The notes beneath the pieces are model-generated. The model did not search any database. It saw nothing but the letters and a program-made list of their open reading frames with translations, and was not told the DNA's origin. DNA of 64,000 nucleotides from Lytechinus pictus. Lineage: Eukaryota. The translations under genes and the position numbers were made by a program. Below, piece after piece: positions 10,131-64,000 of the stretch; position 1 is the stretch's first letter; the number at the start of each line of letters is the position of its first letter. The DNA lies in assembly GCF_037042905.1 (NCBI RefSeq), contig NC_087251.1, forward strand, positions 30,506,001 through 30,570,000, given 5' to 3'.

Positions 10131-10753
10131 CTCTGAAAGTGATGTCTGCATTTCCTTTACAGGAATTACTAAATGAAAGGATCAACTCAATATGAGTCAA
10201 ATTAGCAGCTTCATTAGTTCTATGATAAGACATTTGAAGCACATATAATGACAATAATACTATTGTATACGTCAATATATCAACTGATCATAATTTTCCA
10301 ATTAACGCAGTGGCAAGCTATATAGGCCTACAGACTTCCAAGTAATCCATGTACATTACATATTCTATAAGTTCGTATATACCTTCAGCAAAGTTATCCC
10401 TAGAAAAGCTAGAAAGTACGATTTCAAGGGACAAGAAAGGAAGATATAGATATTCATACAGGAAAATTGTAATAGCCTACCAATTTGGGGGCTGGTTGTT
10501 TGAAGACAATATATAGTAAGGACTTTTGAAGAAAAAAATGAGAATATCTGAACTTGGAATATGAAATCTCAGAACATATCTATCATTGTCTAAAACATAT
10601 TGATATATACAATTTCAACGCAGTGGAATTGAATCAAACATTCATAAATCGATTGTAATCATTTGTAAACGATGAAAATTGATGAAGAAATATTAACAAA
10701 TAAAACTGTACATCTACTTTCATTATATTATGTAAATCGTTTTTTTATTATTA

Positions 10754-10902
10754 TTATATAAGTGGAAGTGGGATGTCCATGTCGTTGAATACTTGACGGA
10801 TACCAGACAGTAAGAGGCGCATATCATCAGGAAATAGATGACCGATGTTTCCAATACGAAAACATTTTGCTTTTGTCACCTTACCAGGGTAGATAACCAA
10901 AC
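10754..10902 (-). CDS. phnW: AEP transaminase exon 8 (terminal)
   Basis: [23 protein letters not shown]…PLPLI-TAA. Confidence 0.92.
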
Positions 10903-13900
10903 CTGTGCAAACGATCAAGGTAGAAAAAAATAGAGAAAAGAGATAATTGATTAAGCAGATAAGTATTTAATAAATATTCAAATACATTTTTGTCCGACAT
11001 AAACTGCGATAACCTGCGAAATTGAGTTGATATATGACCGCGATGATCAGTCATTCCCCCATTTTCATGCAAAGGATTTCTTGATCCATCCAGATGTATT
11101 TTAAGTTTTCAAAACCTTCAATAAACAAAATAATCTCATATTCATTTTATCAGAAGAAAGTGACAGATAAAACTAGATATTAGTACAGATTATTAATCAA
11201 ATGATTTCTTGGCCCTTCAATTAGTGAGCGAGAGAGCGGGTAAGATGCATGGAGACTGGAAAGAAAGTGGGAGAAAGTTACTGTAATGACGTATTTAGAG
11301 AAAAGCAAATGTTATAAGGAGTATTATATACGAGCAAAACGAATAATTTTACCCAATTTGCTTAGCCGTTGATACATCTGGGTGAAATCAAAGTTTGGAT
11401 GGTTTGGGTAGTAGAAAGATGTTATGATATAACCATCGTGGGTATCATCTAAAAACTCTTGAAATCCAAACTCTTTCATCCCTTCTCGTAAGATTTGACA
11501 ATTCTCCTTGTACCTGCAAAGGAAGGATTTTTTAAATGTTAAAAGTGCGAAAGGAGGGGTCGATAGAGGGATAGAAAAGATGATGAGCTATTTTTTTTTC
11601 AAATTAAGAGGAATCCTATTAAGTTAAAAAAAATGTCCCCTTTTGGTTACTGTTCACCAATAGGGAGTTTCCGCACCGCGACGCAGAACTGATTAAAAAA
11701 ACAAAGTAAATGTAAAAAAAAAAGAACTATGAGCTCTTTGTCGAAAACTGATGAACCGGCACAGCAGTTTGGTCTAAGTTTCGGAGCTGATGAAAAAATC
11801 TAATGTGTCGTTTGTCCAGAGTCCAGGACGAAACTGCTGTTTTGATTCACCAATTTTCGACAAAGACTTCTTGGTTGCGCTTTGTCATGAAACGCATTTT
11901 GCAATACATTTTCTATGTTCTTGAAAGCGTTCTGCGCCACGGTGCGAAATCTCCCTATTCCGACTCTTCCAAAGGTTTGTAGATTTTAGGTTCATGTTCA
12001 TAACTCAGAATTTCCGGGGACTCTGAAATTTAAATCACACAAATTTAATTAGTTTAGTTTTAAAAAGAAGTGATTACACTCTACAAAGTGTTTCAAGAAA
12101 GATTACAAATCAACAGGTATAATGGTCTTCTTACCGTTTTGATCTTGCCATAACCCCACCTTCGGCTTGAAATTCTTTGAGTGCCTGATGAAAAGCTAAT
12201 ATGGTGTGGGTAGGAGGGGTGAATCGAAACTGACTGTTCTTCTCTAAACCTTGCCACTGGTCGTACAGATCCAGGCTTAGACTACGAGAGTTACCTGTGA
12301 TTAATGATACATCAAAGAAAGATATCAACATGGGCAGACCATGCATGGACCCCACCCCCTATCAACGCCGATAGCTATTGTAAAAAAAAATGCATCAATG
12401 GGTAAATGGTTTAGATTTGAATTTCATGAGATATCGGCAATTATAACCTGAATGGATCATTTTGGAGATTAAAAAGGCGGATATTCGGTCTGTCCGATTT
12501 AATATCTTTAAATAATGTCGCAATGCACGATTTTTTCAAATTCGAAATGCTTTCCCCTCCCTATATAGACCCACATGTACACCATGGGATCTATAAAACC
12601 AACGGCCTAATGAGCGAATGAAAATTAAGGGGTCAGATATGGCGTATATATATGGGACAAAAAAGCTATGAGCGCGCGAAGCGAGTGAGTAAAATTTCTT
12701 ACGCCAAATCTGATTTTGTGATAGATTTGCATGACTTATATAACAAATTGTATCACATATTCCACCCTTTTCAAGCAAGTGCATAAAACCATCATTACCT
12801 TGACACTTCTCCAGCTTATCGATTTTAGCGATAGTGTATCCGAAACCTGGGACACCTTCTAGGCACTTGTTGGCAGAACTGATCAAGAAGTCAATACCAG
12901 AAGATTCAAATTCGATAGGAATCGCTCCGAAACTGCTCATGGCATCGACAATATAAGATGCGTCTATATTGCATGGTATTGGGGATTTGGTGAGAGAATA
13001 AATAAATGGATCAGTAAGTAAATTATCTGAAAATTAAAATTCAATAGTCATTTTGATTGACAAATCAAATGAAATTTAATATCTTCATAATTAGGTGAAG
13101 AGAGGAAAATATATAATGGCATTTGAACTAAATACATTATGGTATGGAATATTATGAAGTATGCCTATCTATTGGAGGTAAGGAACCAAAATAAACAAAA
13201 AAGTAGCTCATTTTCTCCCACTCTCTCGTAAAGCTAATATGACGTGCCGACAGAAGTTTTGAAATTCAAACCTTAAACGTATACAGGTGTAACGAAAACT
13301 TGTTATTATATCAGTTTAATGAAATAATATAGAGTTGGATAGACCATCATACCTGGGCAATACTTTTTCACGACCTTGCCTACATCATTGATAGGATTGA
13401 TGACGCCTGATGTTGTTTCGCTGTGAACGATTCCAACATTTGTCCATCCTCTATCATCCTTTAATTTCTCCTCTACCCGGGCCGGATCTACTTTCTCATC
13501 CTCGGGAAAAGTCATCACTTCCAAACCAGTCTCGGGAATCCCGAGAACTTTGACTGCCTTCGCCATGCGCATACCGTACGCGCCATTTACTAGTAACAAA
13601 ACCTTGATGATAATGACGAGAATGACAAAGAAAACGAATCATGTTTTGACAAAGGATTTGTTGAGTATGAAAAATATCATTTTTTTTAAATCACTCTTTA
13701 TGGCAAAATGTTCCCTGCGAATTTGAAGCGTGTAAATTGTTACCTTTGATTGTGCACGCAAGACTTAAGAGATCATTATCCTTTTTTTAACACGGGAAAT
13801 CAAAATGTCAGTTGGCTTCCCAGTCGGTGTTAACAAATTTCTATGGTGCGAGGTCATTTCAACACGCTGCAGCAGAGCTGTGGAACAAGTTACCATTTAA

Positions 13901-16900
13901 CCTGAAACTTGCCGATACAATTGAGAGTTTTAAGAGTCTTTTAAAGACACATTTCTTTCTTTCTTTATAATAATTTTTTTTGGAATTTGTGCCAAGGTAT
14001 TTTCATCTTTATATGACACTGACCATATATCTATTTCTCTTTTTTTCTCTTTTTCTTTTCTTCTTTCAAGCGCATAGGGACTTAAATTTACTTTTTGTGA
14101 TATGCGCTATAAAAGAATGGTTCATTATTATTATTATTGAATCATTTATAAGTGTCAAAATACTCATACCGAGTTATTTAAGTGAAATGTTAGCGGGAAT
14201 TTACTTTTTTGTTATGTTTATATATATTCATACTATAATTCTATTTTTGGAAACATCCTTTTACCTCAGTCGGTTTGAGTTCTTCTTGAAATATCTCTTA
14301 AAGCTAATGAACTTCGCTATTAAAAGCTAATGAAATTTTTCTACATCTAATTAGAGCTAATGAAACGTCTCTAAAACGCATTTAAGCGAACGAAACTTCT
14401 CTACAACGACTCAAAGCTAAAATGAAACTTCTCTACAACGACTCAAAGCTAAAATGGAACTTCTCTACAACGACTCAAAGCTAAACTGAAACTTCTCTAC
14501 AACGACTCAAAGCTAAAATGAAACTTCTCTACAGCGACTCAAAGCTAATAAAAATGAAACTTCTCTACAACGACTCAAAGCTAAAATGAAACTTCTCTAC
14601 AACGACTCAAAGCTAAAATGAAACTTCCCTACAACGACTCAAAGCTAAAATGAAACTTCTCTACAACGACTCAAAGCTAAAATGAAACTTCTCTACAACG
14701 ACTCAAAGCTAAAATGGAACTTCGCTATAACGACTCAAAGCTAAAATGAAACTTCGCTATAACGACTCAAAGCTAAAATGAAACTTCTCTACAACGACTC
14801 AAAGCTAAAATGGAACTTCGCTATAACGACTCAAAGCTAAAATGGAACTTCGCTATAACGACTCAAAGCTAAAATGAAACTTCTCTACAACGACTCAAAG
14901 CTAATAAAAATGAAACTTCTCTACAACGACTCAAAGCTAAAATGAAACTTCTCTACAACGACTCAAAGCTAAAATGAAACTTCCCTACAACGACTCAAAG
15001 CTAAAATGAAACTTCTCTACAACGACTCAAAGCTAAAATGAAACTTCTCTACAACGACTCAAAGCTAAAATGGAACTTCTCTACAACGACTCAAAGCTAA
15101 ACTGAAACTTCTCTACAACGACTCAAAGCTAAAATGAAACTTCTCTACAACGACTCAAAGCTAAAATGAAACTTCTCTACAACGACTCAAAGCTAAAATG
15201 AAACTTCTCTACAACGACTCAAAGCTAAAATGAAACTTCTCTACAGCGACTCAAAGCTAATAAAAATGAAACTTCTCTACAACGACTCAAAGCTAAAATG
15301 AAACTTCTCTACAACGACTCAAAGCTAAAATGAAACTTCCCTACAACGACTCAAAGCTAAAATGAAACTTCTCTACAACGACTCAAAGCTAAAATGAAAC
15401 TTCTCTACAACGACTCAAAGCTAAAATGGAACTTCGCTATAACGTACTTGAAGCTCATGAAAATTCTCTATCTACCGCGTAGCAAGGATTTAATTTTGGA
15501 GGGGGCGGTAAATGTACGCAAAGCGTTCCAACCAAAGGTTCCAACACAGAGCGCGTGAAGCGCGCTCCCTCGGGGGGAAGGTGCAGGGAGGGGGGGGGAG
15601 TCCCCCCCCCCCCTCCCGCGCGAAGCACGAAGTTTTCGATATCTCATCAAATTCAAATCAAGAAGGCGTCTCTTGTGTCTCTAGTACCTTATCAACTCGA
15701 ATTCAATTGAACTGCTGTGATAAAAAAAAAAACATTTTCAAAAGATATTATGAGCTTGAAGAATTTGAAATAATTCCTCTTACCGCGCGAAGCGCGGAAG
15801 CTAAAGCGTTTTATAAAAATTGAGAAGAGAAGTGGTATAAAATGCCTACCTTGGTCAGTTGGTCACATCACATTTGATTTAAATTTTGTTAAATCAAGTT
15901 AACTCAAGTTGCAAAACAGAGTAGAAGACGGATATATGCAGGTAGGAAATTGGCCCTATTCATTCCCGCGAATGGCGTTGAAGTTCTGAATTTTAGAAAT
16001 TTCTCTGAAACTTTAACCTGTTATAACTTCGATATTTCTTAGACTATAACTCGATTAAGAAGAAAACAAGCTCAAAGTGTGAAAGGGATTATGCAAGCTA
16101 GAAAAGGGACTTAATTTTCCTTTCCCATGCTCGCGAAGCACGGAAACCTTTGTGATTTATTTTGGAGAAAAAAAAAGTGTAATTTTGCTCATATCAAGCG
16201 CTCCCTTTTGTTTGATTAAGAAACTTCAGTGATGTTAAACATTTTTAATCAATGGCACAAAACAAGACAGGGGATGGATGTGCAGCAATATAGAATAAAG
16301 TTTCATATCGCCATACTTTTGCATATAGCACGGCGCGAATTTAGTGCCTCCCCCTTTGAGCAGATATACTTTGCCAAAAAGTACTTGCTGAAAAAGCGAA
16401 AGAAATATCATTTGGGGAGTTGGGAAGTGACGGTAATGTTTACCCTCTCCGAACAGAAGAGCCGACATTTTGTGTCAATGCAATTTTAAAAAATTAAATA
16501 AAATACTTTTCATACTCTTTACACCCATGTATAATTTATAATTTCTGGCACGGAATATACGATTCCCACAGCCGGAAAGGGGAAAAACGGAGTTGATAAA
16601 ATGTGTGGGAAACGAAAGGGAAAGGCGATTTTGACATTTTTCCCGCGCAGAGCGCGGAAGCAAAATTTTGTATGAAGAGAGAAGATCAACGTTTCGTTTA
16701 GGTTTTTAATATTCTTTTGACAAAAAAAGAAGGAAAAAAAATCAAAGCTACATCTTTCTTCCCTTTTTTCCTTTTCCTCTTTTTTTTTTCTTTTTGGGGG
16801 CGTTTTGGGGGGGCGACCGCCCCACCGCCCCCTGGCTACGCGCCTGTTCTCTATTGGGAAAGATAATTGGAAAATTTACTTACTCGAGGGTTTTCTCGAG

Positions 16901-18896
16901 GAATACTAGATGTAAGAGCGGCCTCTACGCTGAAAGTACCACTTCCTTGCATGAGAACGCAGGTATAGGTTTCTTTTGAAACTCCTTGAGCGCAATAGAA
17001 ACGAAAAAGAAAAACAATCATATTCGATGAAATAAATGAAATAAATATTCGCGTTGCCTCTTGATTTTAGGTCATGCTATTGATTCATCATAAAAAATGA
17101 TGCCAGTCAATCATGTCCCATGTCTTTTTTATATTACACTGCCGACAGATAAAATGTCCAACATTTAATCATAATCCACTTGAAATACGCTTTCGTGCTT
17201 TCGTGAGTCATCCTGTGCAAGCCTGTTGTTTTAATTTAATGCTATACTGTATATATGTTGTGGTGACTTGCCAAATAAAATCAATCAATCACTCACTGTT
17301 GCCCCCCCTTCCTCGATAACGTTGTCCCCTCTTTAAAATAAGACTCACATCGGCTCCACCCCCTCCCCCCATGATTTATACCATATTGGCCACATTTCAT
17401 ACCAGCAATTTGAAGTAAACTTTCTCGAACTGATTGGATGATGTTAATAAATGTCTGGTCTCTGGACCCTAGATCTTGAAGCATGGCTTCTTTAGTCGTG
17501 AGGCTGACACTTAGAGGGCCTGGAGTAAATAACTTCTTGCTCTGACTGCATTCTGATTTATAAGGCAAAATGTGGCACATAAAATAAAATTAGATTAATA
17601 AATATGATTTAAAGGGGAAGTTCATACTGACGTCAAGTAGTTTTGATAAAAGTAGAATAATGAAATAAAGATATTGGTGAAGATCCATAAAATAATATAA
17701 AAGTTATGTTTTATTTTATTTTGTGACGCCCCATTCAAGCAGAACCACAATTATGACGTGATATAAATTCCATGAAATGCTTTTTCTCAGAAAACTCAAA
17801 ACATTTCACCCGTGTATTCCATATATCATTAGAGTGTATTGTAAATATCATACACATTTCAATCGTGGAATCTATATGCCACGACAAATATGGGTTAGCT
17901 GCTTGCATGTGACGTCATCAAAAATATTCATGAATCTTATTCTTTGATTGATTGCCGTCAGACATTATTCAATATATTTTTCTTAATTTTCTACATTAAT
18001 ACAAAACCAACATGATGTCAGGGTGGACTTCCTCTTTAAGGGCAAGGGGTCACTATATAGAAAACTCAGGGAACTTGGGGGCAAATACGTAGCTGTCTTT
18101 ATCGCCCCACCCCCTCCCGTCGACACTCTGTCCTCGGCACGCCAGTACAGTGTTTCATTTTACACAGCATACTAGTATTGCAAATGTATTTGACCAGCTT
18201 TATATCATAAGAGAAAAAATACTTTGTCTGCGAATGATATCTTTATATATCATATCTTTAACTCTAAATGGTTTCCTTCCACTACGCCAAACTTTTTTTC
18301 CTACTTTGTCGGTCATTACATGCCTCTCTTTTATTGCACTTATCTGACATCTTTCCCCGTCATTTTTCCATATTCATAAGCTTCCCGCCATTTCCATTAT
18401 CTCTTTCCACAACCGCCCCCTCCCACGAGTAAATTAATGAGAGAGAGAAAAAAAAAAAAAAAAAAAACTTATCTGACATCTTTCCCCGTCATTTTTCCAT
18501 ATTCATAAGCTTCCCGCCATTTCCATTATCTCTTTCCACAACCGCCCCCTCCCACGAGTAAATTAATGAGAGAGAGAAAAAAAGATGAAGAGACAGTCAG
18601 ATAGAAAGAGAGAGAGAGAGAGAGAGAGCGGGTAGGGGAACTTTCACCCCCCCCCCATTTGTGAAGCCCCTGGCGACACCTGTCACACAAAGAAAATCAA
18701 ATTCCTGAAAAAAAAAGATATATAACATACTTTTCAAGAATGTTACCTTCTTTCAACTGATCGCACTCTTATATCCCAAACCCCAAAACTTTAAATACAT
18801 TACCAAAAAAGTTAACAAACCTTTTTCGAAAATCCATGGTTTTATAACTCACTTACCTGTCTTTCCAGTTGAAGTATCATGGAACCCAGACTCCAT
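10754..18896 (-). CDS. phnW: 2-aminoethylphosphonate--pyruvate transaminase (PhnW/AEPT family, PLP-dependent class V aminotransferase), 391 aa, 8 exons
   Basis: Exons 18857-18896, 17403-17552, 16884-16984, 13353-13602, 12799-12963, 12135-12294, 11353-11513, 10754-10902 total 1176 nt; all GT-AG with consistent phases. PhnW motifs: [61 protein letters not shown] (PLP lysine), [33 protein letters not shown]. Confidence 0.95.
11353..11513 (-). CDS. phnW: AEP transaminase exon 7
   Basis: [17 protein letters not shown]…[22 protein letters not shown]. Confidence 0.9.
11659..11959. mobile_element. MITE with ~30-bp TIRs in AEPT intron 6
   Basis: AATAGGGAGTTTCCGCACCGCGACGCAGAAC vs GTTCTGCGCCACGGTGCGAAATCTCCCTATT. 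Confidence 0.65.
12135..12294 (-). CDS. phnW: AEP transaminase exon 6
   Basis: [13 protein letters not shown]…[20 protein letters not shown]. Confidence 0.93.
12799..12963 (-). CDS. phnW: AEP transaminase exon 5 (PLP-binding lysine)
   Basis: [13 protein letters not shown]…[14 protein letters not shown]. Confidence 0.93.
13353..13602 (-). CDS. phnW: AEP transaminase exon 4
   Basis: [13 protein letters not shown]…[12 protein letters not shown]. Confidence 0.93.
14393..15443 (+). repeat. 32-bp minisatellite (~33 copies) with 356-bp higher-order periodicity, in AEPT intron 3
   Basis: Unit AAATGAAACTTCTCTACAACGACTCAAAGCTA repeated head-to-tail with no spacers; degenerate units flank the array. 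Confidence 0.95.
15472..16846 (+). mobile_element. Non-autonomous hAT-like transposon, copy 1
   Basis: Ends CTACCGCGTAGCAAGG / CCTGGCTACGCGCCTG; perfect 8-bp TSD TTCTCTAT (15464-15471, 16847-16854); homologous to 21942-23369. Confidence 0.85.
16884..16984 (-). CDS. phnW: AEP transaminase exon 3
   Basis: [33 protein letters not shown]; not in ORF track, translated by hand. Confidence 0.9.
17403..17552 (-). CDS. phnW: AEP transaminase exon 2
   Basis: [27 protein letters not shown]…; GT-AG boundaries. Confidence 0.92.
17613..18035. mobile_element. Kolobok-like MITE (TTAA TSD) in AEPT intron 1
   Basis: TTAA|AGGGGAAGTTCATACTGAC … GTCAGGGTGGACTTCCTCT|TTAA. Confidence 0.65.
18339..18583 (+). repeat. 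Perfect ~110-bp tandem duplication separated by poly(A)
   Basis: CTTATCTGACATC…AATGAGAGAGAG at 18339 and again at 18468 (period 129); A20 run between the copies. Confidence 0.85.
18857..18896 (-). CDS. phnW: AEP transaminase exon 1 ([14 protein letters not shown])
   Basis: aaaATG start; donor AG|gtaagt; phase 1 matches exon 2. Confidence 0.75.
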
Positions 18897-20445
18897 TTTA
18901 ACAGTTAATATATTGTAAGCTCCTTACAACAATTCTTGTTTGTCTGTGAAGTTCAGAAAACAGTTATTCCGCATTTATCGCCAATGCTGAAGGTGCATCT
19001 TCCTTCCAAACGACATGACTTAAAGACCGGTGCTCCAAAATCTAATAATGGCGTATAAAGCAATAATGTATGTGGGGTGGGGATAGACCAATCGCAAACG
19101 TTGCTTATTTTAAATAAAGAAAACTTGTTTGTCATATGGCTTCACATGTAGGCCTATATTTTTGTTTTCACATGTATATATTTGTTTTATTTTGTACATA
19201 TTCAATGGATGTAATGTTGGTGGGGCGTGGGGGGGGGGGTCGCCCCATTGGAATTATCACAGAAAGTATACAAGACAGGGATAGAGCACATAAACATTCA
19301 GTCACATGTTTTGTCATTATGACAGTGTACCAAACGTGGGTTTTGATCATGACGTATTTGCAAAACACAATTGCCTAGTATATTAAGTCATATGTATAAG
19401 TCCCTCGCAGAGTATGCGTGACCTTTGATATTTAATTCCCTCTTCATTTTTTTTTTGCACTCAGGGATTACTTGGTGTGCTATAGACCTACAGTATATAC
19501 GCAAGTCCTGATGTAGCTTTATTCATTCCTCTTCGAGACGGCTACCCGGGGGGGGGGGGCACTCGACCAAAAAAGTAGTGGGTATGTGCCGCGGGCGAGA
19601 CAAAAAACGGGGGCCTTGGAGCGGGCTTATTGTAAAAAGGAGGGTCCTCGGAACGGGCTTCGGAACTACAAATGTTTGTGAAAACGGGGGTCCTTGGAAC
19701 GGGTCCCTGCGTGTGAGTGCGTATGCATCCCTATGGAACGTGCATGCAGCTAGCCCAGCGGCACGGGCGCCGGGTGCGCTAGCGCAGAGGCGATGATCGG
19801 ACAGCGCTCTGCGGCCGCTTTTCACCAAAATTGCGGCTCATTGGAGAAGAACAATGCGACCAACGGAAAATATGCGAAGCCTTGGAGCGGATTTATTTCT
19901 TCTTTTTCTCGATAAGAAGAAAATGCTATGCTTTGGAGCGGCTTTCTTTTCGACTCCTACCGTTGATAAAAAAAATATGCGAAAAGTCCACGTATTCTTA
20001 TTTGTTAATCAACACGCTCGCGCAATAACACCTCCAATATAACTCTAGGGCCTACTTCAATGGAAGTTAATTCTCCTGGTAAACAAATTGATTCGACCCT
20101 ATCAGCGTTTTATTTTAGGAAACGTTGCGTAGTAAGATGTTTGTTAATCACTTTATCAGTGTCTATATGAAGTATAGCGAACCAAGGGGTTACCTATTGG
20201 TTTCAAGGATAATAATCATGAATTCTATGATAATTTAATAGTTCTATCGTCTATCTCTTTGCCGGGATCTCTTTATGGGATAAATAACATATCATTCCTC
20301 TTTTGGGTTCATTTACATTCGGAAATATGTCGACATCATGATTTATGAAGTATACGCTTATAGTAATCCCGCCCCACCCCCATTACTCCCCCCAATATGA
20401 TTTTGATAAACTCATTCGTGATATAGTTAAATGAACTCAAATTAA

Positions 20446-23369: not shown

Positions 23370-23380
23370 TTTGTCAGTAA

Positions 23381-43689: not shown

Positions 43690-46600
43690 CCATCACCATC
43701 ATCACCATCATCACCATCATCATCATCATCACCATCACCATCATCATCATCACCATCATTATCATCACCATCACCCCCACTGTCATAATTACTTATCAAA
43801 ATCATCATCACCATTATCATTATATCATATCATCATAATTCTCACCATTGTCATCATAAGATATTTCCACCACCATCACCACCAGCATTGCAAAATATCA
43901 CCACTAAAGCAACCACCAACATCATAAACATCACCACCATCCTTATCATCATCACCATCATCATCATCATCGTCATCATCTCCATAATCATCATCATCAC
44001 CATCATCCTCATCGTCATCATCATTATCACCACCACCACCATCACTATCACACATCATCATAATCCTCACCATTATCATCACAAAATATAACCACTACCA
44101 TCACCACCAGCATTGCAACATATCACTACAGTAACCACCACAATCATCACCATAATCATAGCAACATATCATCACCATCATCACCACCACCAGAACAACT
44201 CGTCATCACCTACCTACAGCTCCATGAATCCTATAACCATCTCCTCCCTTGGTCAATAAATAGACTAACCTCTTTGAAGCTGGTCTGTATGGCCCTCTTC
44301 TACCAGACGAACCAAGACATCTTGAAAGTGAGGCATGATGCTGTATTTCGCTTGACAGTCTCGGATACATGCCAACGCTCCTTCCAAATCATTCCTGAAA
44401 ACCAATCATCAAAACCAAATTCTCATGTCTAAGCATTAATTCCATCATTACACTGATCAGAAAAATTCTTTCATATCGCAAGATTGACATTCCCTTTGCA
44501 CATCTGCAATAAAACACATATAATCATCAAAATAAAAAATACCCCATTGCTAATTCTCAGTATGTAAGAGCATGTTATGATCTCAACTGAAATTACTACA
44601 ACTGATCATCACAACACAACTGAAATATCAATTATTTTTGCATTAAGTTAAGCCCTACAAGAACTGGATGCTGAACAGCTGGAAGAGTGATGTTGGGGGC
44701 TGAATTATGTACATGGGCCAGACATTCCCTCAGCATTGTGATCATGAGTTTGACAACTACACTTTAAGATATGAATGATGAAAGGTCCTTACTTGGCCAT
44801 GTACGCGCTGACAATGGGTCCCACAAGGTTATTATTAGGCTTCACCAGATCAAGCTCCACCATCGTCTCAAAGATGCGTTCCACCTCTTCAGTCAGTCCG
44901 TCAGATGCTAGTTCATTCAGCATATGAAACGTTTGCTTCTCCATCCGATCCGTTTCAACGGCAAGTTCTTTCATCTCGTGTACCATGCTCAAAGCATCTA
45001 TAAATAACACCAAATAGGTTTGTATTGGCATATTAATCTTCATGTCATTCATCTGACGTTTGAACAATTATTGCGATTAGAGTAATATAAATACACACCT
45101 GCTCATATGATCATTCATTCAAATAATAATAAATAAATTTGGTACATGAATATGGTACATACATGAAAATATTACACATAAGTTAAACAAACAATTAAAG
45201 GAATTTTGTATACCAATGGTATGTAAAATTGTTGTTCCTTTGATTCAATTTAATACTAATTGATAACTGTAAAGTAACTTGTTGATAAACAATTTTTAAC
45301 TTTGAACTCATCCAATTAACAAGGCACTGGAAAATATAATTTGAATATCAAAGATATCTTAGCATACTCTCAAAATGACATTTTTTTTTACAAAGTTTCA
45401 TAACAAAAGGCACTTCTGTGTACATTAGTATATTGCAGCTTTATGCAAACAAAATGGAAGTAACATTCTCATTAGTATGTCACAAATAAAAAAATTCTAA
45501 AATAAAACAATATTAGAACCCAAGGAAGAGCTCCTCAGTTTCGATGACCTTATTTGGTGACCATCTTCAAAGTCTACATTCGCCCACTTTTAGAATTTGG
45601 ATCACCAGTTTGGAGTTCGAGTCTTACTGCGGCCCAGGTGGAAGAACTAGAACGTGTTCAAAAGCGAGCTCTACGCTGCATTGCATTCCCGAATGTTCTA
45701 CCTTATTTCGATCAGCTTACGTTGTACGGACTAAAAACTCTCAAAGAACGTAGAGATGACCTCCTGCTTCGTTTTGGACTTGGGTTACTAAAATCTGAGC
45801 GTCATCGAGATATGCTCCCCCCTACCAGAAGATCTCAGTCCCGCTCGAATGTCCAGCTCCGGAACTCTGAATGCTTGGACATACCATTTTGCAGAACTCG
45901 AATATTCAAACAATCCGCGATACCACATATTGTATCTATATTGAATTCACAATGATTGCATTGATTTTGTTGTATTTTCTATATTATCACAAACCTTGCT
46001 CAATTCCTTTATTTTTACTTTCCTTTTTTTCCCTTTTCTGATCTTTCTTTTCCACTTTTTTCTCCTTTCTTACCCCCTTCTTTCTTCACTTTCCTCTTTT
46101 ACTTTACCTCAAGCGTGTAAATGAGCTTACTGTGATTTTGATTTTGTGCAATATTGAAAGCTTGTTACTGCCATATTTTACCTTGTTAATATTTGAAATT
46201 GTAATGTTTTCTGAACTGGTTTTTATTCCCCGGCAATCCGGTGATTTGCACAATTTTCTTATTTTTTAGATCAAATGAATGTAACAGTTAACTCTAATGT
46301 ATGTATATACTCAATTTTAATTCGTGCCAATGCCCATCTTTCTTGCCATTATCTCATCGACCACACATTTCACCTTTTTTTCTCTTCATTGACGTATTCT
46401 TGGCATTTTTTTTTCATCACTTACTGCTATATTTTTACAAGGTTTTAACCAGCTTTGTGTCCATATTTCCCTACTATTTTTCCCCCTTCTGTTGGTCTTC
46501 TTTTCCATATCTTGCCTTCATCTGCCCCTCCTTTACCTTTCCTTTCTGTTTCTTTCCTTCCATTATTTTCCCTTGTCACTCTTTTTTCATCATTCATCCT

Positions 46601-49600
46601 ATCCCATCCTCTCTTTTTTTTTTCTTTCTCTTCCTTTTCTCATTTGCTTTTTATATTTATGATTCCCGTAATATGGTTTCCTCTCACTATCTCTCTCCCT
46701 TTCTCTGTTCCCCCTTTATTTTTGTCCCCGTATTACTTGGTTATACATGTAATATAGCATTTAATGCCCTAGTTGAGTTCTGTTCGAATTACACTTTCAC
46801 ACTTCTTGACGTTTGTACATGCTTCATTGATCAATATGTTTCTTTTTAAAGTTTCTTTTTTTTTCTTTTGGTATATCTTTTATGATTGTGTAATATGATT
46901 ATTGGTTGGTTGTAATTCTTTGCTTTTATTTCATCTTTATAATATTGTAATTTGCCTTTGTTTATACTGTGCACTGGATTTTTCAGTCTTTGGACTGTTT
47001 TGCCAGTTTTTTTTATTGAATAAATACCATACTACTACATCTCTTGGATAGGAGGTTAAGGTAAAAAGGCTCAATGGATAAAAATGAATTACACATGAAA
47101 TGTCATTTACAAACCTGGGAGTTGATTATTCTTGGCCAGGTAGCAGATCAAATGGCGATACTTGGAGATGTCTAACTTGAAACTTGGATCAAACTTGAGC
47201 CTGAAATATAATTCATTCATTAAAAAAAATTACGAATGAAGTCTATCGAATAAATATATGATTTTTATATTGCGTTTCAATAGAAAATCATTCAGATGGA
47301 AAAATTAACTAGCACCACCCAATTAATTTTTTTTAGTGGTATTTACAACTTCTAAAGAATAAGAATATAAAGATTACATTAATGGAAATACTTAATTAGA
47401 TCCTCAAAAATAATATCAACCACTAATCCTTCAATCTTTCATTAAATATTTAAGACTTGAAAATCATGACAGATTTACCATAAAACACATCCAATGGGAA
47501 AAGACTTACAGTTGATCTTTCAACTCCATGGCTTCAGTCCATTTGCCTTGGTTACAGCACACGTTCATAAGACAGGCAAAGATGGCCCCCGTTGGTTCAT
47601 AACCAGCCTCATCAAACTCCTTCTTCAACTCCATTGATCGTTCAAAATTCTAGAAGGAAACAAATATTTGGATAGGGTGACTTGCATTAAAAATTTACTT
47701 AGCACAATGATATTGATCCTGATGTTTATTACAGTGGTACATGATATACCAATGATCATTCAGGCTATCAATACACTCAATTTGATTAAATCTTTCAATT
47801 CTTTCACAAATCCGACCGGTCATAGGTCAAAACTGTTTGACAGGACATTTTGATGTGCATGCATGTGCTTTCTGCTATACGATCACAAGTCTATATCAAT
47901 GTTGGCGGTATACTATGTTTCAGCATAGTTGTAGTCTTTAAGATATTTTACATTTATAGTTTTTCCTTTCAATCTATATATCATGATTCTTCTAGATTAC
48001 ATGACTGATAATCATTGGTTACCATCTGTTCTATCATCACAACTCTCAGACAATGAACTAAAATTAGACATTGAAGATTCTTTACAAACATATTGAAGAC
48101 GTTGTCGATTACACTGTTTTAATGCGAATCATTTAGAAACCATCTCAAAAGTCTTAATGGGTACATATACATAACAAGAAAACATCATTAAAAGTGCATA
48201 TCCCATGCTTTGATAGCAATATGCAATAAATCTGATGCATACTGCTAGAATTATCTTAATAAATTTGATACATATTGCTGGGAATACCTGTTACATGATT
48301 CTATTTCAGAAACACTTCAGCAATTATACCTTAAAATAACTTGAAGTAATCTACCAAATTCAACTGGCTGTTAGCATATAATTTGTGCTTGGAATAAGAG
48401 CCTTGATAGGAAGGACCGAGAGACTTACATTGTTTGTAGTATGGACCAGGAGGAGTCTCCTCAGGATCCCTCTCAGGTTACCTCCTTTCTCCCTCAGCTC
48501 CACTAGATGGTTCTCCAGCTCCTCAAGGGATACCTCCTTAATGTAAAAATAAAAATAAAGCTACAGGGTTTGAATTGATCCAAGGTCATCGATGGCTATG
48601 AGCAAGGATGCCCTATTGACTTATATCAATGCCCATCTCATTGGCCTTGAAGAGTTTTTTTAACTTTTTTTTCTCTTTCCCACTTGTGATGTAATTTTGA
48701 AATATGCCCTACAGAAAAGTGGCCTTGCACTTAAAATGGTGAAAGTTAAGGCCTATAGCCACTCAGCAAGTTGGTCTAGCTTTTATTTTATGGAACAATC
48801 AACTTTCTATCTTGAATGACAAGTTGATTATCATTAGATTGAGACTACGCTAAATATAACAGTGGTGTTTCCTCTAATCCTAATGGGTTTTGGAGAGTAT
48901 TTCGTGGGGGCAGCTAACATTATTCATATACACCTACAGGACAAGAAGGATACTTAACCCTAACTAGGCCGGGCTTTTTTGGCTGTTCTGTGGCCGGGGG
49001 GGGGGGGGGGGGGGGGTTGATTCAACCCCCCCCTGAGATCTCGACCGCCGATCGCGCGAGCGCCGCAAAAATTTGCACGCCGGTAGTATGCGATGTAATC
49101 TACAAGGCTGTATGGTAAAATTTTCCAAAATAATGAGATTTTATTTTACATGAATTAATTATGCTAATTTATGCGTAAATCATACTTTTTGCTCTAATTC
49201 ACTAAATAAAGCTCCTAGAATGCTAATTTTTGGTAAAAATATTCTTTGTAGCATTCTTAACAACGGCAATTGAAAAAAACTTCGGTTTGGAAATCAATTT
49301 CTTATGTATTTTATTGTTTTATGAATTTCTTATGTATTTCTTTGTTTTTCAACCTTTTGCTTTTCTTTGTTTTTTTCACCAGATTTATTGCACAACCTTT
49401 TTGAAGCATAAATATGCTAAAATCAATTGCTTTCAGCTGTTTGAAGTAAAAATAATCATATCTTTATGAATATGATGAGAAAACTCAATTTACATTGACT
49501 TTGTACACAAAATTACGTTTTGGAACAGTTTTTGGTCCGAAAGCACTTACAAAATGTTGCGTAATTTCGGAACCGCGTACCCGGGCGTCGTAAATTTGGT

Positions 49601-52600
49601 CTCAAAAGATGCGCGAGACTTAAAAGTATAAACTCTGCGAGTGGCGCGGTCAAAAAATTTCGCGCGGCGGAATGATCGCAGAAAATGTTGAGAGGGGGTT
49701 TGATTCAACCCCCCCCCCCCCCCCCCGGCCATTTTAGGGTTAAATGAAAGGAAGTGTGACTGGTGACCTTGTACATTGGAAAATCTGGTAACCTGTGTGT
49801 CCATAGGTTTTTCTCAACACTCCTTGCTTTTAGTCCATGGGCAATTCAGCAGTTCTTTTTCTTTCACCTTTTTACCCGTCTCGTACACATAACATTTTAT
49901 TTCCTCTCTCCCTCTCTTTTCTTTTTTTCATTGCATCTTGGGCACTCTTATCGTTAATTACATCTTGCCATCAAGCTATGCTTCACTTTAGGTCCTTCTA
50001 CTTTGAATCTAAAGCTTTAGAATGTTTATTTTGCATTTGCATTTCTTTCTTTCAGTCTGAGTTGCAGGTTTTTATACCTCAACAGATCAGATCATGCATC
50101 AAAGAGTAAAAGGCCCTCTAAGAGAATCATCTGATTGGGATTACTTGGAAGAATGATACATACCTCACCAGGCAGAACATCAAAGTTAGCAACACGATCC
50201 TTCTGTATCTCAGTAGGGTCTAGGAGTTTGAGAGCAGCTGATTTAAGCATTGGGAGCTTGATCCGATCCAACTGATTCCTAATTCCGCGATATCTTGGTC
50301 CACTGATGAATAATCCCTGATAGGATAGATAGGAGAAGTGATCACATAGGTGAAGTGTTTGATCTGGAAGGTGTCAAGCACCAAAAGTTCTAATTTCTTT
50401 CCAAGTAAATTCCAGTCATGCTACAACCATAACATGAATTCCATTAGATAATTAGTATTTGCAGAGTACAAAGCAAAATAAGCATGGCATTCAATCCGGT
50501 TTGGAGGAGCAATAGTTATAGTAAATACACATGCCTATGAAATGTTCGCGAATTTTAGATGTCGGTCTAGATTCCTTTATTTCACAGTGCTTGGTTTGCA
50601 TGCCGATGTCAGAACTTCTGAATCCATAAGTATACTGGTATGGCAAAATGATTTGGACAGACTCTCTCTTGAAGAAGTTGCTTAATGAAAGTGCTCAAAT
50701 TCAGCTTTGGTTGTATAAAGAATAAATTTCATCTTTATTCAGCCTTTCAGACAACCCTTATCAATGATATAATAACTTTTTTTAGCATGATGGGTATATA
50801 ATGTCTGGCAGCATGTAAGAAAAACAAGTGGAATGCCTCTGGCCGTCTCACCTGCATCACGCGATTCAATATAGCAGCAGTGCTGATTTTGAAAACTACT
50901 ATAACTCGCACAAGATGTTCAGTGATACTTGGTTACTCTTATTTCCACGTTTTATGAACTAGACCAATACACTTATAGAGATATGATGGCAATTCAACAA
51001 ATACCCCCAACGTGGCCAAAGTTCTTTGACCTTACATGACCTTTGACCTTGATCATGTGACCTGAAACTCGCACAGGATGTTCAGTGATACTTGATTACT
51101 ATTATGTCCAAGTTTTATGAACTAGACCAACACACTTTCAAATTTATGGCTGTAATTCAACAAATACCCCAATTTGGCCAAAGTTCATTGACCCTAAATG
51201 ACCCTCGACCTTGATCATGTGACCTGAAACTTGCACAGGATGTTCAGTAATACTTGATTACTATTATGTCCAAGTTTCATGAATCAGATCCATAAACTTT
51301 CAAAGTTATGATGGTAATTCAACAGATACCCCCAATTCGGCCAAAGTTCATTGACCCTAAATGACCTTTGACCTTGGTCATGTGATGTGAAACTCATGCA
51401 GGATGTTCAGTGATACTTGATTAACCTTATGTATAAGTTTCATGAACTAGGTCCATATATTTTCTAAGTTATGATGACATTTCAAAAACTTAACCTTAGG
51501 TTAAGATTTTGATGTTGATTCCCCCAACATGGTCTAAGTTCATTGACCCTAAATGACCTTTGACCTTGGTCATGTGACATGAAACTCAGGCAGGATGTTC
51601 AGTAATACTTGATTGACCTTATGGCCAAGTTTCATGAACTAGGTCCATATACTTTCTAAGTTATGCTGTCATTTCAAAAACTTAACCTCAGGTTAAGATT
51701 TGGTGTTGACGCCGCCGTGCGCCGCCGCCGCCGCCGCCGCCGCCGTCGCCGTCGGAAAAGCGGCGCCTATAGTCTCACTCTGCTATGCAGGTGAGACAAA
51801 AATCATTCTCTGGACTGATACACAGAATTCAAAATCTAAAATTCAATTTTTATATCATTGCTTTATTAGATAATTCTGCAACTGATTTTTTCACAAATAA
51901 ATTTATCCCGATGTAGATCTTAAACTTTTGTATGAATGACATTTGCTTAATCTTACACTACTGCATGATTACTGACTGGATTGCACCTACCTCTCTCGCA
52001 AGGCTTCTGAGTAACAGATTAAGATCAGGTTTCAACTGTGTAGCTTTGTTCACTGGAATACTAGAGACAATATCATACAAGAAACTTCCAAGCTGGTCTG
52101 AAAAATGAAACAAAGAATAACATTTAACATTATTTAACATTTCAATAATGCCTAACAATTTCAAATATTATTCTTAGTTGTATGTAAGCTATTAGTCAGA
52201 TTAGGATGATCAATACATGAAATATCCATATCTCTGATTGTTTCAAATGCTTAAATTGTATAAGTGTAGAAAGATATGTTTCTAAAAGAAAACATTCTCA
52301 ATTCTATATCATAGATTCATTTTAACTACATGCATGTTTGGGCCTCATGAAAATATTTCACATAATTTGTTTTACAACTAAATTGTTGAAATCCTCATAT
52401 TTTCATCTAAATATATGAAGAAAAAAAATTCTTGCTTTCAATGTCTTGGGTATATCATAAAGCATATATAGCACATATCATTCAACCTCCATTAATTTCT
52501 TCTTCTTTTTTTACAAACAGTCCACTTTTAATAGTTGAATGATGAAAATGAAAAATATAAACAAATACTGACTATTCATGATATATGTAATAAACTGTCA

Positions 52601-55600
52601 TCAATTAATTATCAAATATTACTGCTATTAAGTGCAAAGTGTAAGAAAAATAATATATGTTTACCCATTTTTAAGATTGTTACTAAATCTAACTCTGGGT
52701 TTATACTAAAAAAATTACCTTGAGCTTTTATTGAATAGTGAATACATTACCTTCTTTAGTAACATTATTGTCCTCAAGGTCTTGATGTGATTCAACAAAA
52801 TGTTTGCAGATTTTTACCATTTGCTCTGGTTGAGGATTTCTGTACAAAGAATATCAAATATATGTAATATCAATTAGATACATGAGATGATATTTAAAAA
52901 CAAATGTTTAGACACTGTATCTTCATTAAAATACAATTTGTTTACAAACAGAGTGAGATTACTTACTGCCTACATTCTAATGGAAATTGAACTTGGGATT
53001 CAAGTCGTGATTCAAGTTCAAGTTCTTTTTTAAGTTATTTTTTACAACTAAAAGAAAGAAATCTTATTCTATAGCCTACAGTCTAAAGTCTATATCAGAT
53101 ATAGCAATGTATCATTACCAGGTTGAATTTAACCCCCTTTCCCTTAAAAAACAACAACGAATATTTGTCTAAAATCATCAAAACAAACATGATTATCATA
53201 ACACATTGAGAAAGGATGACATGTGAACTCACTTGCTGAAGCAGGAAACCAGACCAGCTCGAATGAGAGGAACATCAACAAAATCTCTGTATTCTTCAAC
53301 TAAAGGAAATCAAAAGGATAAAAAATGCAAGTATAAAATAAAGATACACTACAGCTTGCAACTTCAGCTCACCATAAATTACACAATCATCTTGTGAACT
53401 GATTTTCAAAGTCCACATTACAAATGCCATGAACTTCAAATCAAATATCATTTGTTAAATCATTTTGTAGATTAAGTTTAGTGCAATGACCTCTTGGAAA
53501 AACTAATGAGAACTTGGAAATAACAAGTAAACAAGTGGAATGCCTCTGGCCGTCTCACCTGCATCACGCGATTCAATATAGCAGCAGTGCTGATTTTGAA
53601 AACTACTATAACTCGCACAAGATGTTCAGTGATACTTGGTTACTCTTATTTCCACGTTTTATGAACTAGACCAATACACTTATAGAGATATGATGGCAAT
53701 TCAACAAATACCCCCAACGTGGCCAAAGTTCCTTGACCTTACATGACCTTTGACCTTGATCATGTGACCTGAAACTCGCACAGGATGTTCAGTGATACTT
53801 GATTACTATTATGTCCAAGTTTTATGAACTAGACCAACACACTTTCAAATTTATGGCTGTAATTCAACAAATACCCCAATTTGGCCAAAGTTCATTGACC
53901 CTAAATGACCTTTGACCTTGATCATGTGACCTGAAACTTGCACAGGATGTTCAGTAATACTTGATTACTATTATGTCCAAGTTTCATGAATCAGATCCAT
54001 AAACTTTCAAAGTTATGATGGTAATTCAACAGATACCCCCAATTCGGCCAAAGTTCATTGACCCTAAATGACCTTTGACCTTGGTCATGTGACGTGAAAC
54101 TCATGCAGGATGTTCAGTGATACTTGATTAACCTTATGTATAAGTTTCATGAACTAGGTCCATATATTTTCTAAGTTATGATGACATTTCAAAAACTTAA
54201 CCTTAGGTTAAGATTTTGATGTTGATTCCCCCAACATGGTCTAAGTTCATTGACCCTAAATGACCTTTGACCTTGGTCATGTGACATGAAACTCAGGCAG
54301 GATGTTCAGTAATACTTGATTAACCTTATGGCCAAGTTTCATGAACTAGGTCCATATACTTTCTAAGTTATGCTGTCATTTCAAAAACTTAACCTCAGGT
54401 TAAGATTTGGTGTTGACGCCGCCGCCGCCATCGCGGCCGCCGTCGGAAAAGCGGCGCCTATAGTCTCACTCTGCTATGCAGGTGAGACAAAAACTAATGC
54501 AATTGGTTGAAACATCACTTTAAACATAGTTCGAATTATTTTCCCCCATAACCCTTGTCATACAAAATGCACTTTTATACTGATAATTCCCTCCTAACAT
54601 TCATGAACCAGTAACCTGTGGTTTATGCAATTCCCATTTGAATTAGAGATGTATAGATACTTCAAAGAAAAGAGCGATAGCTTACTGAGCTGAACAACAC
54701 TGTCTAGTCTCTGCTGTTTGACTTCATTCCTTGCCATGGCGATGACCAGAAACTTATCAACTGTTATACCAAGCTCCTGTGTGGACAGAACATATTGAGA
54801 TAAAAAAATACCAATTTATTAGATGGGATTAAAGAAAGGATCCCCAAGTTCAAGCCAAAGACTCGCAAAGCAAATGGTTTGCAAGTTGCCCGCTGACTTG
54901 GCAAACATGCATACTTAAAACTATCCATCAAACTACACTGTATAAAATCATCTGGCTATGACCTTTTGCACATATTATATGCTTACTTCCAAACAAAGAC
55001 CACTTTATTGTGTCATTCCCTGACAGGTGTAATATAACTTACATTGATTGTTGCCTTGATGTCTGTTAGTGTACCTCCGAGACATGGAAAGACAAACCTG
55101 GTGAATGTATCACTGCTGGCCTCAACACCCATCTCACCCATCTGTTTCAATGTATTCATGATACCTGCACAGAAAACAAAGCAAAATGAAATTTTCCTTT
55201 TTAATCCTTTCTCAGGAACAAATAACTTTTCATCACTGAAAAATACATCACAAATATGAAATTCTCACTGGATATATCACAAATGCATGACACAATTTCA
55301 CTAACCCTTAATTTAAGGGACGACCAAGATTTGCTGAGGATTTAGTGATGACACAACATGAGGGCCCAATAAGCGTGATAATTACAGCTGATGTGATGAA
55401 TCAGCCAATAGACACTGTAAATATCTGGGTCCCATCTTACAAAAAGTTGCCATTGATCTGATCAATCTCAAATATATGTTAATCCATGTCATAATTTTTA
55501 TCCCTGGAAATCTGCACAACGTACTTCTCATACAAAGACCAGCAACTGCCAGAAAAACAATCAATGTATAAATATAACATCATATTTAGTAAAGAGATTG

Positions 55601-58600
55601 AACAAAAGGGCATTTTTTATGTTGACATTACTGGCTTTCCACTCGTGTGGTTGACTGAATCAATCGCAACTCTGTGTAAGACAGGGCCCTCTCTCTCATC
55701 TGTGTAAGATGCCTTCTCAAATCAATAATTTTAAGTTCTGGGATTTATTTCAAATTATCAGGCAGCTACTACTACATTGCCACTGTACAGCTTATCTTTT
55801 CTCTTCTGACAGGTTATCTGCTACTATAAATTACACTGAATTAAAAAAAAAACAAGAATCCTTATTGATATCTTTACCTTCTTTGTCATTGGCCGCGGAA
55901 TCTCTTGCAAATATTGGCCAGAAGTAGTGAGGTCTAACTGGAATATCCTGTCAAAAAAAAGAAAGAAATATTTATCATTCATCCCTGCATTCATTCATTC
56001 TTGGTACGATCTTACAGAAGTGACACTGAATTCTTTGTTCAATGGTATACAAAGATATTTTAAAAATTTACTTGCTGTGAATTGGAAAGCATTTTCAAAC
56101 AACTTTCAAAGTTGGAAAAAACGCGATAAGCTTAATGTGCCTTTTATAGGACATTTTCAATTGCTTTAAACAAATTCCTTGAATATATACAATACATTTT
56201 AATATGCACAAGACATCTGAGCAGGTTGATCTATGATTGTGTTGACTAAATTCAAGGAAAAGTTCAAATTCTTCGTCATAACTGGAATAACTATCTGGCA
56301 TGGCAGATACTATCTCAATGAGTGAGCTAAAGCATGCAATGACACAACTCAGTAATTCCTCAGCAAAGAATTGAATTCATCTATCTCAATTAAATTCATT
56401 ACATTTCAATTCACTATATTATGGTCCAATCGTTTTCATCATAATACAATCAAATTCATAAAATCTCAATTCAATTCATTTTATTTCAACTTAATTCATA
56501 ATACTTACAAGTTCAAGCATCCTTCTAATGATTCCAAAAGCATAATCTGCGTAGAAATTATCAAAAGTACAATTTATAACAAAGTAAGTGTTGAAAGTAA
56601 AAGCAGAAATTTGCATACTATTATATCATCATTGATGTCTTCCCTATTCATGATAGCATTGGTACTATTATGAATACTTTACCTGCACCTAAACACAAGA
56701 ATTTGACACATAATTTTTTCAATCATTAATTGCGATTAACATAAAAGTCAACTGTATGATCAATAACTGCTTTGTGATAATGGCCCCTGAAATCTGATAT
56801 TACCTTTTGCATCTTTGTTGCAGAAGCATGAAATTCACACAATTTACAATATTACACAAGTCAACACAATGATGATTAAAGACAACTTGCTGTGGTAAAC
56901 AAGCAATTGAAATAAGCTCATCTTGAAAGAAGGAAATTAATATTAAAATAGTAGCATTATATTTAACATACCTTTATTATCCTTCACTTTCCTAAGCGCT
57001 GAATGAAGTGCTACAATGTACGGTGATGAATGGAGGCCTGATGAGATTAGCTCATCCAAGTGTCCAAACAAGGTTTCATGAGGCTAAGAATAAAAGTTAT
57101 TTAAAGAATAAATGAAATCATATTCTTGCAAAAGAAATACCAATTAATAAGTAATCAACATCTAATCCTGAAAAGTAAATCACTGGGTGCAAGCCAGATA
57201 TGTATTTACATAATTCAACTTTCCCGGCAAACCGTTAACATTGCATGACCAAAAACTATTTTATATTAATCTGCATTTCAAAATGCACTTCAAAAGTAAA
57301 GAAAAATAATTTCATTTACATTTATTCAATGTCAGAAATTTGAACATGTACAAAATATTTAAAAAAGTATAACACTCCCAACAATAAGGTATATTCAGCA
57401 GGGTCTCACTTCATATCAATATAATTTCATAACCTATTGGTAAAACTAAAAAATCCTGCATTTTGATTAGCCAATAGCCAATTTGCAAAATATCTTGCAT
57501 TTGTTGACAAGGAAATGAGGTGATACTCATCTCCATGAGAGCAAAGTAATAATCTTCAAGACAACTTTGGATCGTGTTAACCACATGGTAAATACCCATA
57601 CTCACTAGTTGAATTTGGACTGCATGATCGATGAAAAAGTTTCCTTGGTTCTGTGGCTCTGCAGAGTTTTCTACTCTCAATCCCTGAAACATCTTTAGAA
57701 CTATAAACGCAGCATCGTCGTGTCCCTTGGTCATCAGACTCAATGAAAGGTTAATAGCATCTGTACCAAACAATAATTAGGGAAGCGTTTCAAGAAAGGA
57801 TTTGTCAGACGTTGTATCCGACAGAGTCTGTTTTATCCGACAGCAACTCCATTATTATCATAATAGAGATGCTCAGCCATTCAAAATTGAGACAAGTTGT
57901 CATCTGACAAATCGTCAGATGAGAAATGTTGATGAAATGCTCCCCAGAAAATGGTTTTCTTTTTTTCTCAAAGGGATTCATTCACACATGGCAAATTTAA
58001 TTATGATAAAGACAAAAGAAAAAGACCATAACATTCTATTAAAAGAAACATGTTTCGAGGTACACACCTCATCATCAGCCTAAAATCATAAAACAGAGTC
58101 ACTGGTATTTATACATTTGGGATCTCAAGGTAATTTCAAGAATGTAGTTTTAAAATACAATGGTATGTGGAACAAAGTGAATTTAAAAAGGAGTGAAAGA
58201 CAAAATTATGTCAGTGATAGGTCAGTTTGGGTGGGTTGATTAAACAGAAAATATTATTTGATAAATTGTACACCTGTTAAGTTAGGGGCTTTCTCCATTT
58301 GATGAAGAGCCCTTCTTTTATTTTGAGCTAAAAGTCTGTTGATTATCATAAATTGATTCTGATAATCAACTGTTGTTCTGACAATTAACCATACCCCTAC
58401 CCCAACTCCCCTTTCATGCTAGGTTGCTAGTTTATAATTTTCTCTATGATTTCTTTCATGATTATTACTTCATTTAGTTTTTTTTACAGGTTAGGCAATA
58501 TTTGTAATGTAAAATTGACAATTTTGCTTAATAAATTGCTGAGTATGCTGGCAGTTTTACGATTCTGAATTTTGTCTTTCTATCGGAGAAGACCTGGCTT

Positions 58601-63930: not shown

Positions 63931-64000
63931 CTGGAAAGCAAATGGAGAAAGACTTGCTTTGAGGATATTTGAACACATATTTCGAATTTGAAATCTATAT

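Follow-up and report, generated by a model that had tools for sequence, protein, structure and literature searches.

A transcribed PhnW-type gene in the sea urchin Lytechinus pictus, likely paired with PhnX in 2-aminoethylphosphonate breakdown

No natural phosphonate is commoner than 2-aminoethylphosphonate (AEP), whose breakdown is generally regarded as a microbial trait. A stretch of 64,000 nucleotides from the sea urchin Lytechinus pictus (C7:30506001-30570000, contig NC_087251.1; hereafter the window) raises the question of whether an animal encodes an enzyme of this metabolism and, if so, whether that enzyme makes AEP or consumes it. A first-pass annotation, made from the letters of the window alone, had placed there an intact gene for a PhnW-type AEP transaminase (AEPT). 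The analysis reported here indicates that the transcribed L. pictus PhnW likely opens a two-step, host-encoded breakdown of AEP that PhnX would complete. PhnW would convert AEP and pyruvate to phosphonoacetaldehyde and alanine, and PhnX would then split phosphonoacetaldehyde into acetaldehyde and phosphate. The AEP would presumably come from the diet or the environment, and the location would probably be cytosolic, no obvious targeting signal being visible by eye.

Exon placement guided by relatives resolved a PhnW-type gene on the minus strand of the window, at 10754-18896, with eight exons, seven introns and a product of 391 amino acids (aa). The summed exons come to 1176 nt, that is, 391 codons plus the stop TAA, and all seven introns are bounded by GT..AG, so that the first-pass coordinates for a seven-intron, 391-aa gene proved exact. 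The parts of the gene, all on the minus strand, are as follows; the joints named are those seen in spliced transcript contigs from the sequencing runs described below.

18897..19014, minus strand: 5' untranslated region, to the extent reached by one 1278-nt spliced contig (run X1), unspliced from exon 1
18857..18896, minus strand: exon 1, with the ATG and 40 nt of coding sequence; exon 1/2 joint 17552/18857 in 4/4 runs
17403..17552, minus strand: exon 2, 150 nt, encoding LFTPGP; joint to exon 3 (16984/17403) in 3/4 runs
16884..16984, minus strand: exon 3, 101 nt, encoding QGSGT
13353..13602, minus strand: exon 4, 250 nt, encoding HSETT
12799..12963, minus strand: exon 5, 165 nt, encoding D187 and the lysine K213 that binds pyridoxal phosphate (PLP); joint 12963/13353 in runs X1 and X2
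12135..12294, minus strand: exon 6, 160 nt, encoding FRFTPP; joints in runs X1 and X2
11353..11513, minus strand: exon 7, 161 nt; joints in runs X1 and X2
10754..10902, minus strand: exon 8, 149 nt including the TAA, encoding R358 within CFRIGN; joint 10902/11353 in runs X1 and X2, the X2 contig reaching 10737

The four motifs named in the first-pass annotation (SANK, DAMSS, HSET and FRIG) are all present in the product, as SSANK at 209 (K213), IVDAMSS at 185 (D187), HSETT at 157 and CFRIGN at 356 (R358). The spliced product is identical to RefSeq isoform X2 at 341 of 341 positions, that isoform being 341 aa long without exon 2, and to a 391-aa L. pictus entry in nr at 385 of 391. Isoform X2 corresponds to an in-frame skip of exon 2 (17403-17552) that removes residues 14-63, including LFTPGP. 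A genome profile search found PhnW as a single copy in the 812-Mb L. pictus assembly. The gene is thus intact and complete in eight exons.

Transcript evidence came from Logan contigs of four runs (X1-X4) from one study, presumed to be of the RNA kind. One 1278-nt contig (X1) and one 1213-nt contig (X2) joined exons 8-7-6-5-4 at the predicted sites, reading CT..AC on the plus strand. The exon 3/4 joint spans an intronic minisatellite, with separate alignments made on either side of it, and both contigs lie on exon 3 as well as on exon 4. Since positions 310-411 of the X1 contig record lie on exon 3 and positions 410-659 on exon 4, and therefore abut, we infer this joint as well. The first-pass annotation had named junction support from RNA sequencing as a check, and the contigs supply it directly for exons 8 to 4, 1/2 and 2/3. 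With only one PhnW locus in the genome, the spliced form does not derive from a retro-copy within the assembly. The PhnW gene is transcribed and spliced. A joint that skips exon 2 was not listed in any of the four runs, and isoform X2 may be a minor form or an annotation artefact.

The family assignment rests on profile hidden Markov models (HMMs), solved structures and conserved residues. Whole-protein scores, taken on the nr entry, were 474.4 bits for NF010006 (cut-off 296), 456.5 bits for TIGR02326 (400.8) and 433 bits for TIGR03301 (360.8), and RefSeq isoform X2 also lay above all three of these NCBIfam PhnW cut-offs. The next NCBIfam family, pyridoxamine-pyruvate transaminase, reached 124 bits against a cut-off of 600. 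Each of the seven larger exons in the window had the three PhnW models as its best NCBIfam matches, colinear over profile positions 4-366 of 369, and this colinear match of seven exon peptides is far above chance. Pfam, applied to single exons, returned PF00266 in only two of the seven, the NCBIfam models being the more telling.

Among solved structures, the closest was the Salmonella typhimurium AEPT 1M32 (E 4.6e-101), with query residues 17-379 aligned colinearly on chain residues 3-360. AEPT chains in the PDB search, including 1m32, 9kk8 and 7e7g, gave E values of 5e-101 to 1e-89, three of them besides 1M32 lying at 1e-99 to 1e-89, and a fused nucleotidyltransferase-AEPT was also matched. 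Archaeal and bacterial serine or class-V aminotransferases followed at 4e-33 to 3e-25, and eukaryotic alanine-glyoxylate (AGXT) and serine-pyruvate (SPT) aminotransferases at 1e-12 to 1e-17. D187, K213 and R358 align with D167, K193 and R339 of 1m32 in chain-index numbering, and all three are invariant in 43/43 holozoan and 36/36 bacterial rows (79/79). In 1M32 we take Asp168 to pair with the pyridine nitrogen of PLP, Lys194 to be the Schiff-base lysine and Arg340 to bind the phosphonate. Judged from its sequence, the 391-aa product is a PhnW-family class-V aminotransferase closer to AEPT than to AGXT or SPT, and AEP and pyruvate are its substrates as predicted from homology. The first-pass choice of PhnW/AEPT over AGXT/SPT therefore holds on HMM cut-offs, PDB ranking and invariant residues alike, with no grouping of the product with AGXT/SPT. 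It shares with AGXT, likewise of class V, the PF00266 fold class and PLP chemistry, but AGXT is only a distant relative.

The direction of the reaction was approached through the pathway partners, by an exon-by-exon search of the one 812-Mb assembly with family HMMs (E <= 0.001, loose prefilter). As a positive control, TIGR02326 recovered seven of the eight PhnW exons, down to an exon of 30 bits, and nothing elsewhere in the genome. TIGR01422, the PhnX model, matched four colinear exons on contig C19. The PhnX gene located there (C19:13834532-13840037) has six exons and five GT-AG introns, PhnW by contrast lying on C7, and its spliced product is identical at 291/291 positions to the RefSeq protein "phosphonoacetaldehyde hydrolase-like [Lytechinus pictus]". 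This product scored 305 bits with TIGR01422 (cut-off 220), matched solved phosphonatases at E 4e-58 to 9e-53, and carries both DWAGT and PMGAHK, which we take to hold the Asp nucleophile and the Schiff-base Lys, respectively.

In the same search and at the same threshold, phosphoenolpyruvate mutase (PepM; TIGR02320 and PF13714), phosphonopyruvate decarboxylase (Ppd; TIGR03297) and PhnA (TIGR02335) gave no match in the assembly; PhnY, PhnY*/PhnZ and C-P lyase were not searched for. Hydrolysis by PhnX is irreversible, and in a genome without PepM we know of no source of phosphonoacetaldehyde other than AEP. Because PhnX is present and PepM, Ppd and PhnA gave no match in a search whose control recovered 7/8 exons, a degradative role is the likelier, and the direction of L. 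pictus PhnW is likely that of AEP breakdown, as far as gene content can indicate. The first-pass annotation, seeing no partner gene in the window, had left the animal either making AEP or recovering phosphorus or nitrogen from dietary phosphonates; of its two alternatives, recovery now gains from the finding of PhnX, and synthesis loses from the lack of a PepM or Ppd match. Bacterial gene neighbourhoods point the same way. Of the 80 bacterial loci closest to it, 48 have a PhnX-like gene within a flank of <=3 kb of phnW, mostly directly downstream and on the same strand, and the bacterial relatives nearest to the animal PhnW clade therefore come mostly from degradative phnW-phnX pairs.

Several points weigh against a breakdown role. 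AEP transamination by PhnW is reversible. That PepM and Ppd are lacking is concluded from an exon-wise HMM search of one assembly with a loose prefilter, where no match is not equivalent to absence. A literature search found no assayed animal PhnW, so that substrate and direction rest on homology, and it returned, in the partial texts available, no report of sea urchins containing or consuming AEP. Every spliced PhnW contig comes from the single study named above, with its presumed RNA label. In two further RNA-seq runs depleted of ribosomal RNA (X9 and X10; about 6/100 of each run read), no read fell on exons 4-8, from which PhnW expression appears to be low or not universal. Finally, corals too have members of the orthologue group of urchin PhnW, together with reported PepM and Ppd genes, and their enzyme is interpreted as biosynthetic in the portions of those reports available; orthology alone therefore does not set the direction.

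The coral case is the model for the best-surviving alternative, namely that the urchin enzyme is the last step of a PepM, Ppd and AEPT series whose AEP would go into phosphonolipids or glycans, the role put forward for corals. Besides the reversibility of the reaction, this alternative draws on orthologues in phyla known for AEP lipids (such as molluscs and cnidarians, according to the source excerpts) and on the PepM, Ppd and AEP transaminase genes described for Acropora digitifera in the available part of a 2013 report (PMC3640398). It nevertheless appears unlikely for L. pictus: TIGR02320, PF13714 and TIGR03297 drew no match while the same method found 7/8 PhnW and four PhnX exons, the substrate of a synthetic transamination would lack a known source other than AEP itself, and the PhnX encoded in the same genome would destroy the intermediate.

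A second alternative is that this PhnW-clade enzyme drifted in animals to another substrate, such as an omega-amine, or glyoxylate or serine as in AGXT, and that its name misleads. The lack of an assayed animal member leaves room for such a drift, as does the UniRef label 'Alanine--glyoxylate aminotransferase' carried by many orthologues. That label is best understood as one given at family level, because AGXT is only distantly related (1e-12 to 1e-17 against 1e-101). We consider substrate drift improbable: the protein exceeds three equivalog cut-offs, its match to solved AEPT is at least about 10^84 times better than that to eukaryotic AGXT/SPT, the arginine that we take to bind the phosphonate is invariant in 79/79 rows, and the partner PhnX is kept in echinoids. 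A breakdown role for PhnW thus remains the preferred explanation.

The origin of the gene was assessed from its relatives. The 120 best were mostly named animal proteins, the first named bacterium appearing at 53% identity. Deuterostome orthologues among these 120 came from echinoids, an ophiuroid, asteroids, a holothurian, a crinoid, hemichordates and amphioxus, and further orthologues from many molluscs, a brachiopod, annelids, a priapulid, insects, crustaceans, chelicerates and a myriapod; outside the bilaterians, cnidarians, sponges and the filasterean Capsaspora were represented. A scan of GTDB genomes yielded 590 bacterial relatives, the best 80 of them at 44-54% identity. A quick, unrooted tree of 79 rows was inferred with IQ-TREE (LG+C20), with support from the Shimodaira-Hasegawa-like approximate likelihood ratio test (SH-aLRT) only. 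It combined the window product with 42 named holozoans out of the 120 best relatives and with 36 bacterial loci out of the 80; unnamed rows, extra species of well-sampled phyla and two near-identical L. pictus database entries were left out.

In this tree, the 43 holozoan rows fell on one side and all 36 bacteria on the other, separated by a branch with SH-aLRT 97. Support was 100 for Echinoidea, 99 for the window product with Strongylocentrotus, and 91 for echinoids with asteroids and the ophiuroid, and deeper branching among the animals was left unresolved. The topology fits a single origin of PhnW before animal diversification, followed by vertical descent and losses. Old vertical descent is favoured over contamination or recent transfer because the orthologues group across animals apart from bacterial PhnW. 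The first-pass annotation had offered an ancestral gene with patchy loss or an old transfer domesticated by introns, and the tree agrees better with the former than with a transfer specific to one lineage. That the gene is a contaminant, or came into sea urchins by recent bacterial transfer, is suggested by nearest non-animal relatives that are bacterial, but is exceedingly improbable against seven spliceosomal introns, host repeats and a minisatellite within them, the neighbouring gene LRPPRC, a position 30.5 Mb into the contig, and 43 holozoan rows beyond the SH-aLRT 97 branch with the echinoderm groupings just given. The earlier exclusion of bacterial contamination, to which spliced transcripts can now be added, is accordingly upheld.

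PhnX has a different distribution. A phmmer library search with L. pictus PhnX returned few close relatives, comprising a hemichordate, a coral and unnamed marine sequences. Among ten representatives looked up, the closest named ones were from the hemichordate Glandiceps (52%) and a cluster of the coral Orbicella (47%), with bacteria from about 40%. A tree of 59 rows comprised four echinoids, Glandiceps, Orbicella, 30 unnamed representatives and 23 bacterial PhnX, the last being every second match from the bacterial PhnW loci. The six named animals and seven unnamed rows formed one clade with support 99, which held none of the 23 named bacteria. On these searches, the spread of PhnX is much narrower than that of PhnW.

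Phosphonate genes in animals have been described before. In the available portions of the reports, bdelloid rotifers express transcripts for AEPT and phosphonoacetaldehyde hydrolase, classed as foreign and read as serving AEP use (PMC3499245, 2012); PhnX is a candidate for horizontal gene transfer in corals (PMC4878875); and PhnX/PhnW, described from 11 deep-sea coral genomes and present in nearly all coral genomes examined, are expressed there and interpreted as breakdown of AEP by the host (bioRxiv 10.64898/2026.05.06.723128, 2026). The PhnX tree of the 2026 report takes in 'other Metazoa', echinoderms perhaps among them. The coral PhnX is read in that report, and in PMC3640398, as a transfer from dinoflagellates. 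A 2023 review, in the part available, speaks of eukaryotic phosphonates as 'even more cryptic' (PMC10574752). Literature searches on AEP in sea urchins, echinoderms or Strongylocentrotus, and on the enzyme name, yielded no echinoderm PhnW in the partial texts returned.

The urchin gene can be set against these systems. It resembles Salmonella PhnW/AEPT (1M32) in length class, whole-protein colinearity and the conserved Asp, Lys and Arg. In contrast to bacterial PhnW, it is nuclear, has seven introns and a 17-residue N-terminal extension, and its function is predicted. It also does not stand in an operon, with PhnX on C19 and PhnW on C7, and Pho-type regulation is not expected. With the coral AEP genes, as far as the source excerpts describe them, it shares being host-encoded, intron-bearing, expressed and of the same family. 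Cnidarian PhnW and the urchin protein belong to one holozoan group, and Orbicella PhnX shares a clade with echinoid PhnX. Corals differ in being reported, in those excerpts, with PepM and Ppd, which would allow both synthesis and breakdown, whereas the urchin genome gave no match to either. The idea of an animal-encoded two-step route from AEP to phosphate is common to the urchin and the bdelloid rotifers. According to the available part of the rotifer report, however, the rotifer genes are classed as recent horizontal acquisitions, while urchin PhnW groups across animals in a tree built without rotifers.

A broader statement would be that sea urchins retain only the degradative half of AEP metabolism, a holozoan-inherited AEP transaminase together with PhnX and without PepM or Ppd. 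We put this forward tentatively, as a possibility that falls a little short of an even call. If it is true, an important grazer of the sea would turn AEP from its diet into phosphate on its own, although this part of the marine phosphorus cycle is normally ascribed to bacteria. A host-encoded pair of PhnW and PhnX in echinoids would let abundant grazers obtain phosphorus, nitrogen and carbon from phosphonolipids independently of their microbiota. One ancestral enzyme would then serve synthesis or breakdown in each lineage according to the partner genes kept. Since L. pictus is genetically tractable, knock-outs could put host AEP breakdown to the test.

Compared with what was already known, the advance is modest, and the first-pass annotation rated the novelty of the gene too highly. 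RefSeq already names the L. pictus gene "2-aminoethylphosphonate--pyruvate transaminase-like", orthologues are annotated in dozens of invertebrates, and animal AEP catabolism is an idea already in print with the rotifer and coral genes. What is new here is the pairing of PhnW and PhnX with no PepM or Ppd match in this genome, and a phylogeny that speaks for old, vertical inheritance of PhnW rather than lineage-specific transfer.

The surroundings of the gene, about 30.5 Mb into a chromosome-scale contig, include the following features.

44789..63998, minus strand: exons of LRPPRC, the upstream neighbour, on the same strand as PhnW; the gene passes the right end of the window and probably stretches closer to PhnW
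14392..15470, no strand assigned: 32-nt minisatellite in intron 3, with 33 copies and a 356-nt higher-order unit (95% matches)
16480..16880, no strand assigned: host interspersed repeat in intron 3, with at least 1215 first-look candidates genome-wide

The first-pass identification of LRPPRC as neighbour is borne out at the level of exons. On the minus strand, 62784-62960 had residues 115-158 of human LRPPRC (8any_A5) as its sole match (E 1.7e-9), and 44789-45067 matched residues 766-834 (E 2.5e-5), ranked below several designer PPR proteins. Pfam matches to PPR were found at 44792-45067 and 62199-62465, also on the minus strand. The Pfam scan outside the PhnW gene covered 138 of the 193 open frames of >=62 aa and returned these PPR matches and one sub-threshold FA_desaturase only; among the 138 frames scanned, no Pfam domain was found in window positions 1-10000. 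The FA_desaturase match, which lies below its cut-off in a His-rich, low-complexity frame (43199-44432), is probably due to chance. Long His-, Ile- and Thr-rich frames run there on the plus strand over a simple-sequence tract, and GC skew is -0.42 at 42001-44000. Within an LRPPRC intron, at 45548-45952 on the plus strand, a 135-aa frame resembles by eye the C-terminal part of open reading frame 2 of a retrotransposon without long terminal repeats; it had no Pfam match.

The introns of the PhnW gene contain several repeats. The first-pass annotation had described host transposons there; a host interspersed repeat is indeed present in intron 3. All 40 scored candidates matched it, its own copy at 100% and the remaining 39, spread over 13 contigs, at 79-89% across most of the query length; three of the 43 match rows were short additional fragments (85-95%). 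A second copy in the window seems to lie at 23129-23518, judged from similar Lys/Pro-rich translated frames. In the minisatellite of intron 3, the plus strand can be read in short open frames. In intron 1, a 129-nt unit is duplicated in tandem without mismatch (1.9 copies, 100%) at 18338-18583, and this duplication looks very young; a (GA)n tract comes next, at 18568-18628. Summed contig depth rose into the thousands, with many loose ends and strand-switch joints, at 9822-10143 downstream of the gene, 11754-11914 in intron 6 and 19569-20000 upstream; these are high-copy transcribed repeats.

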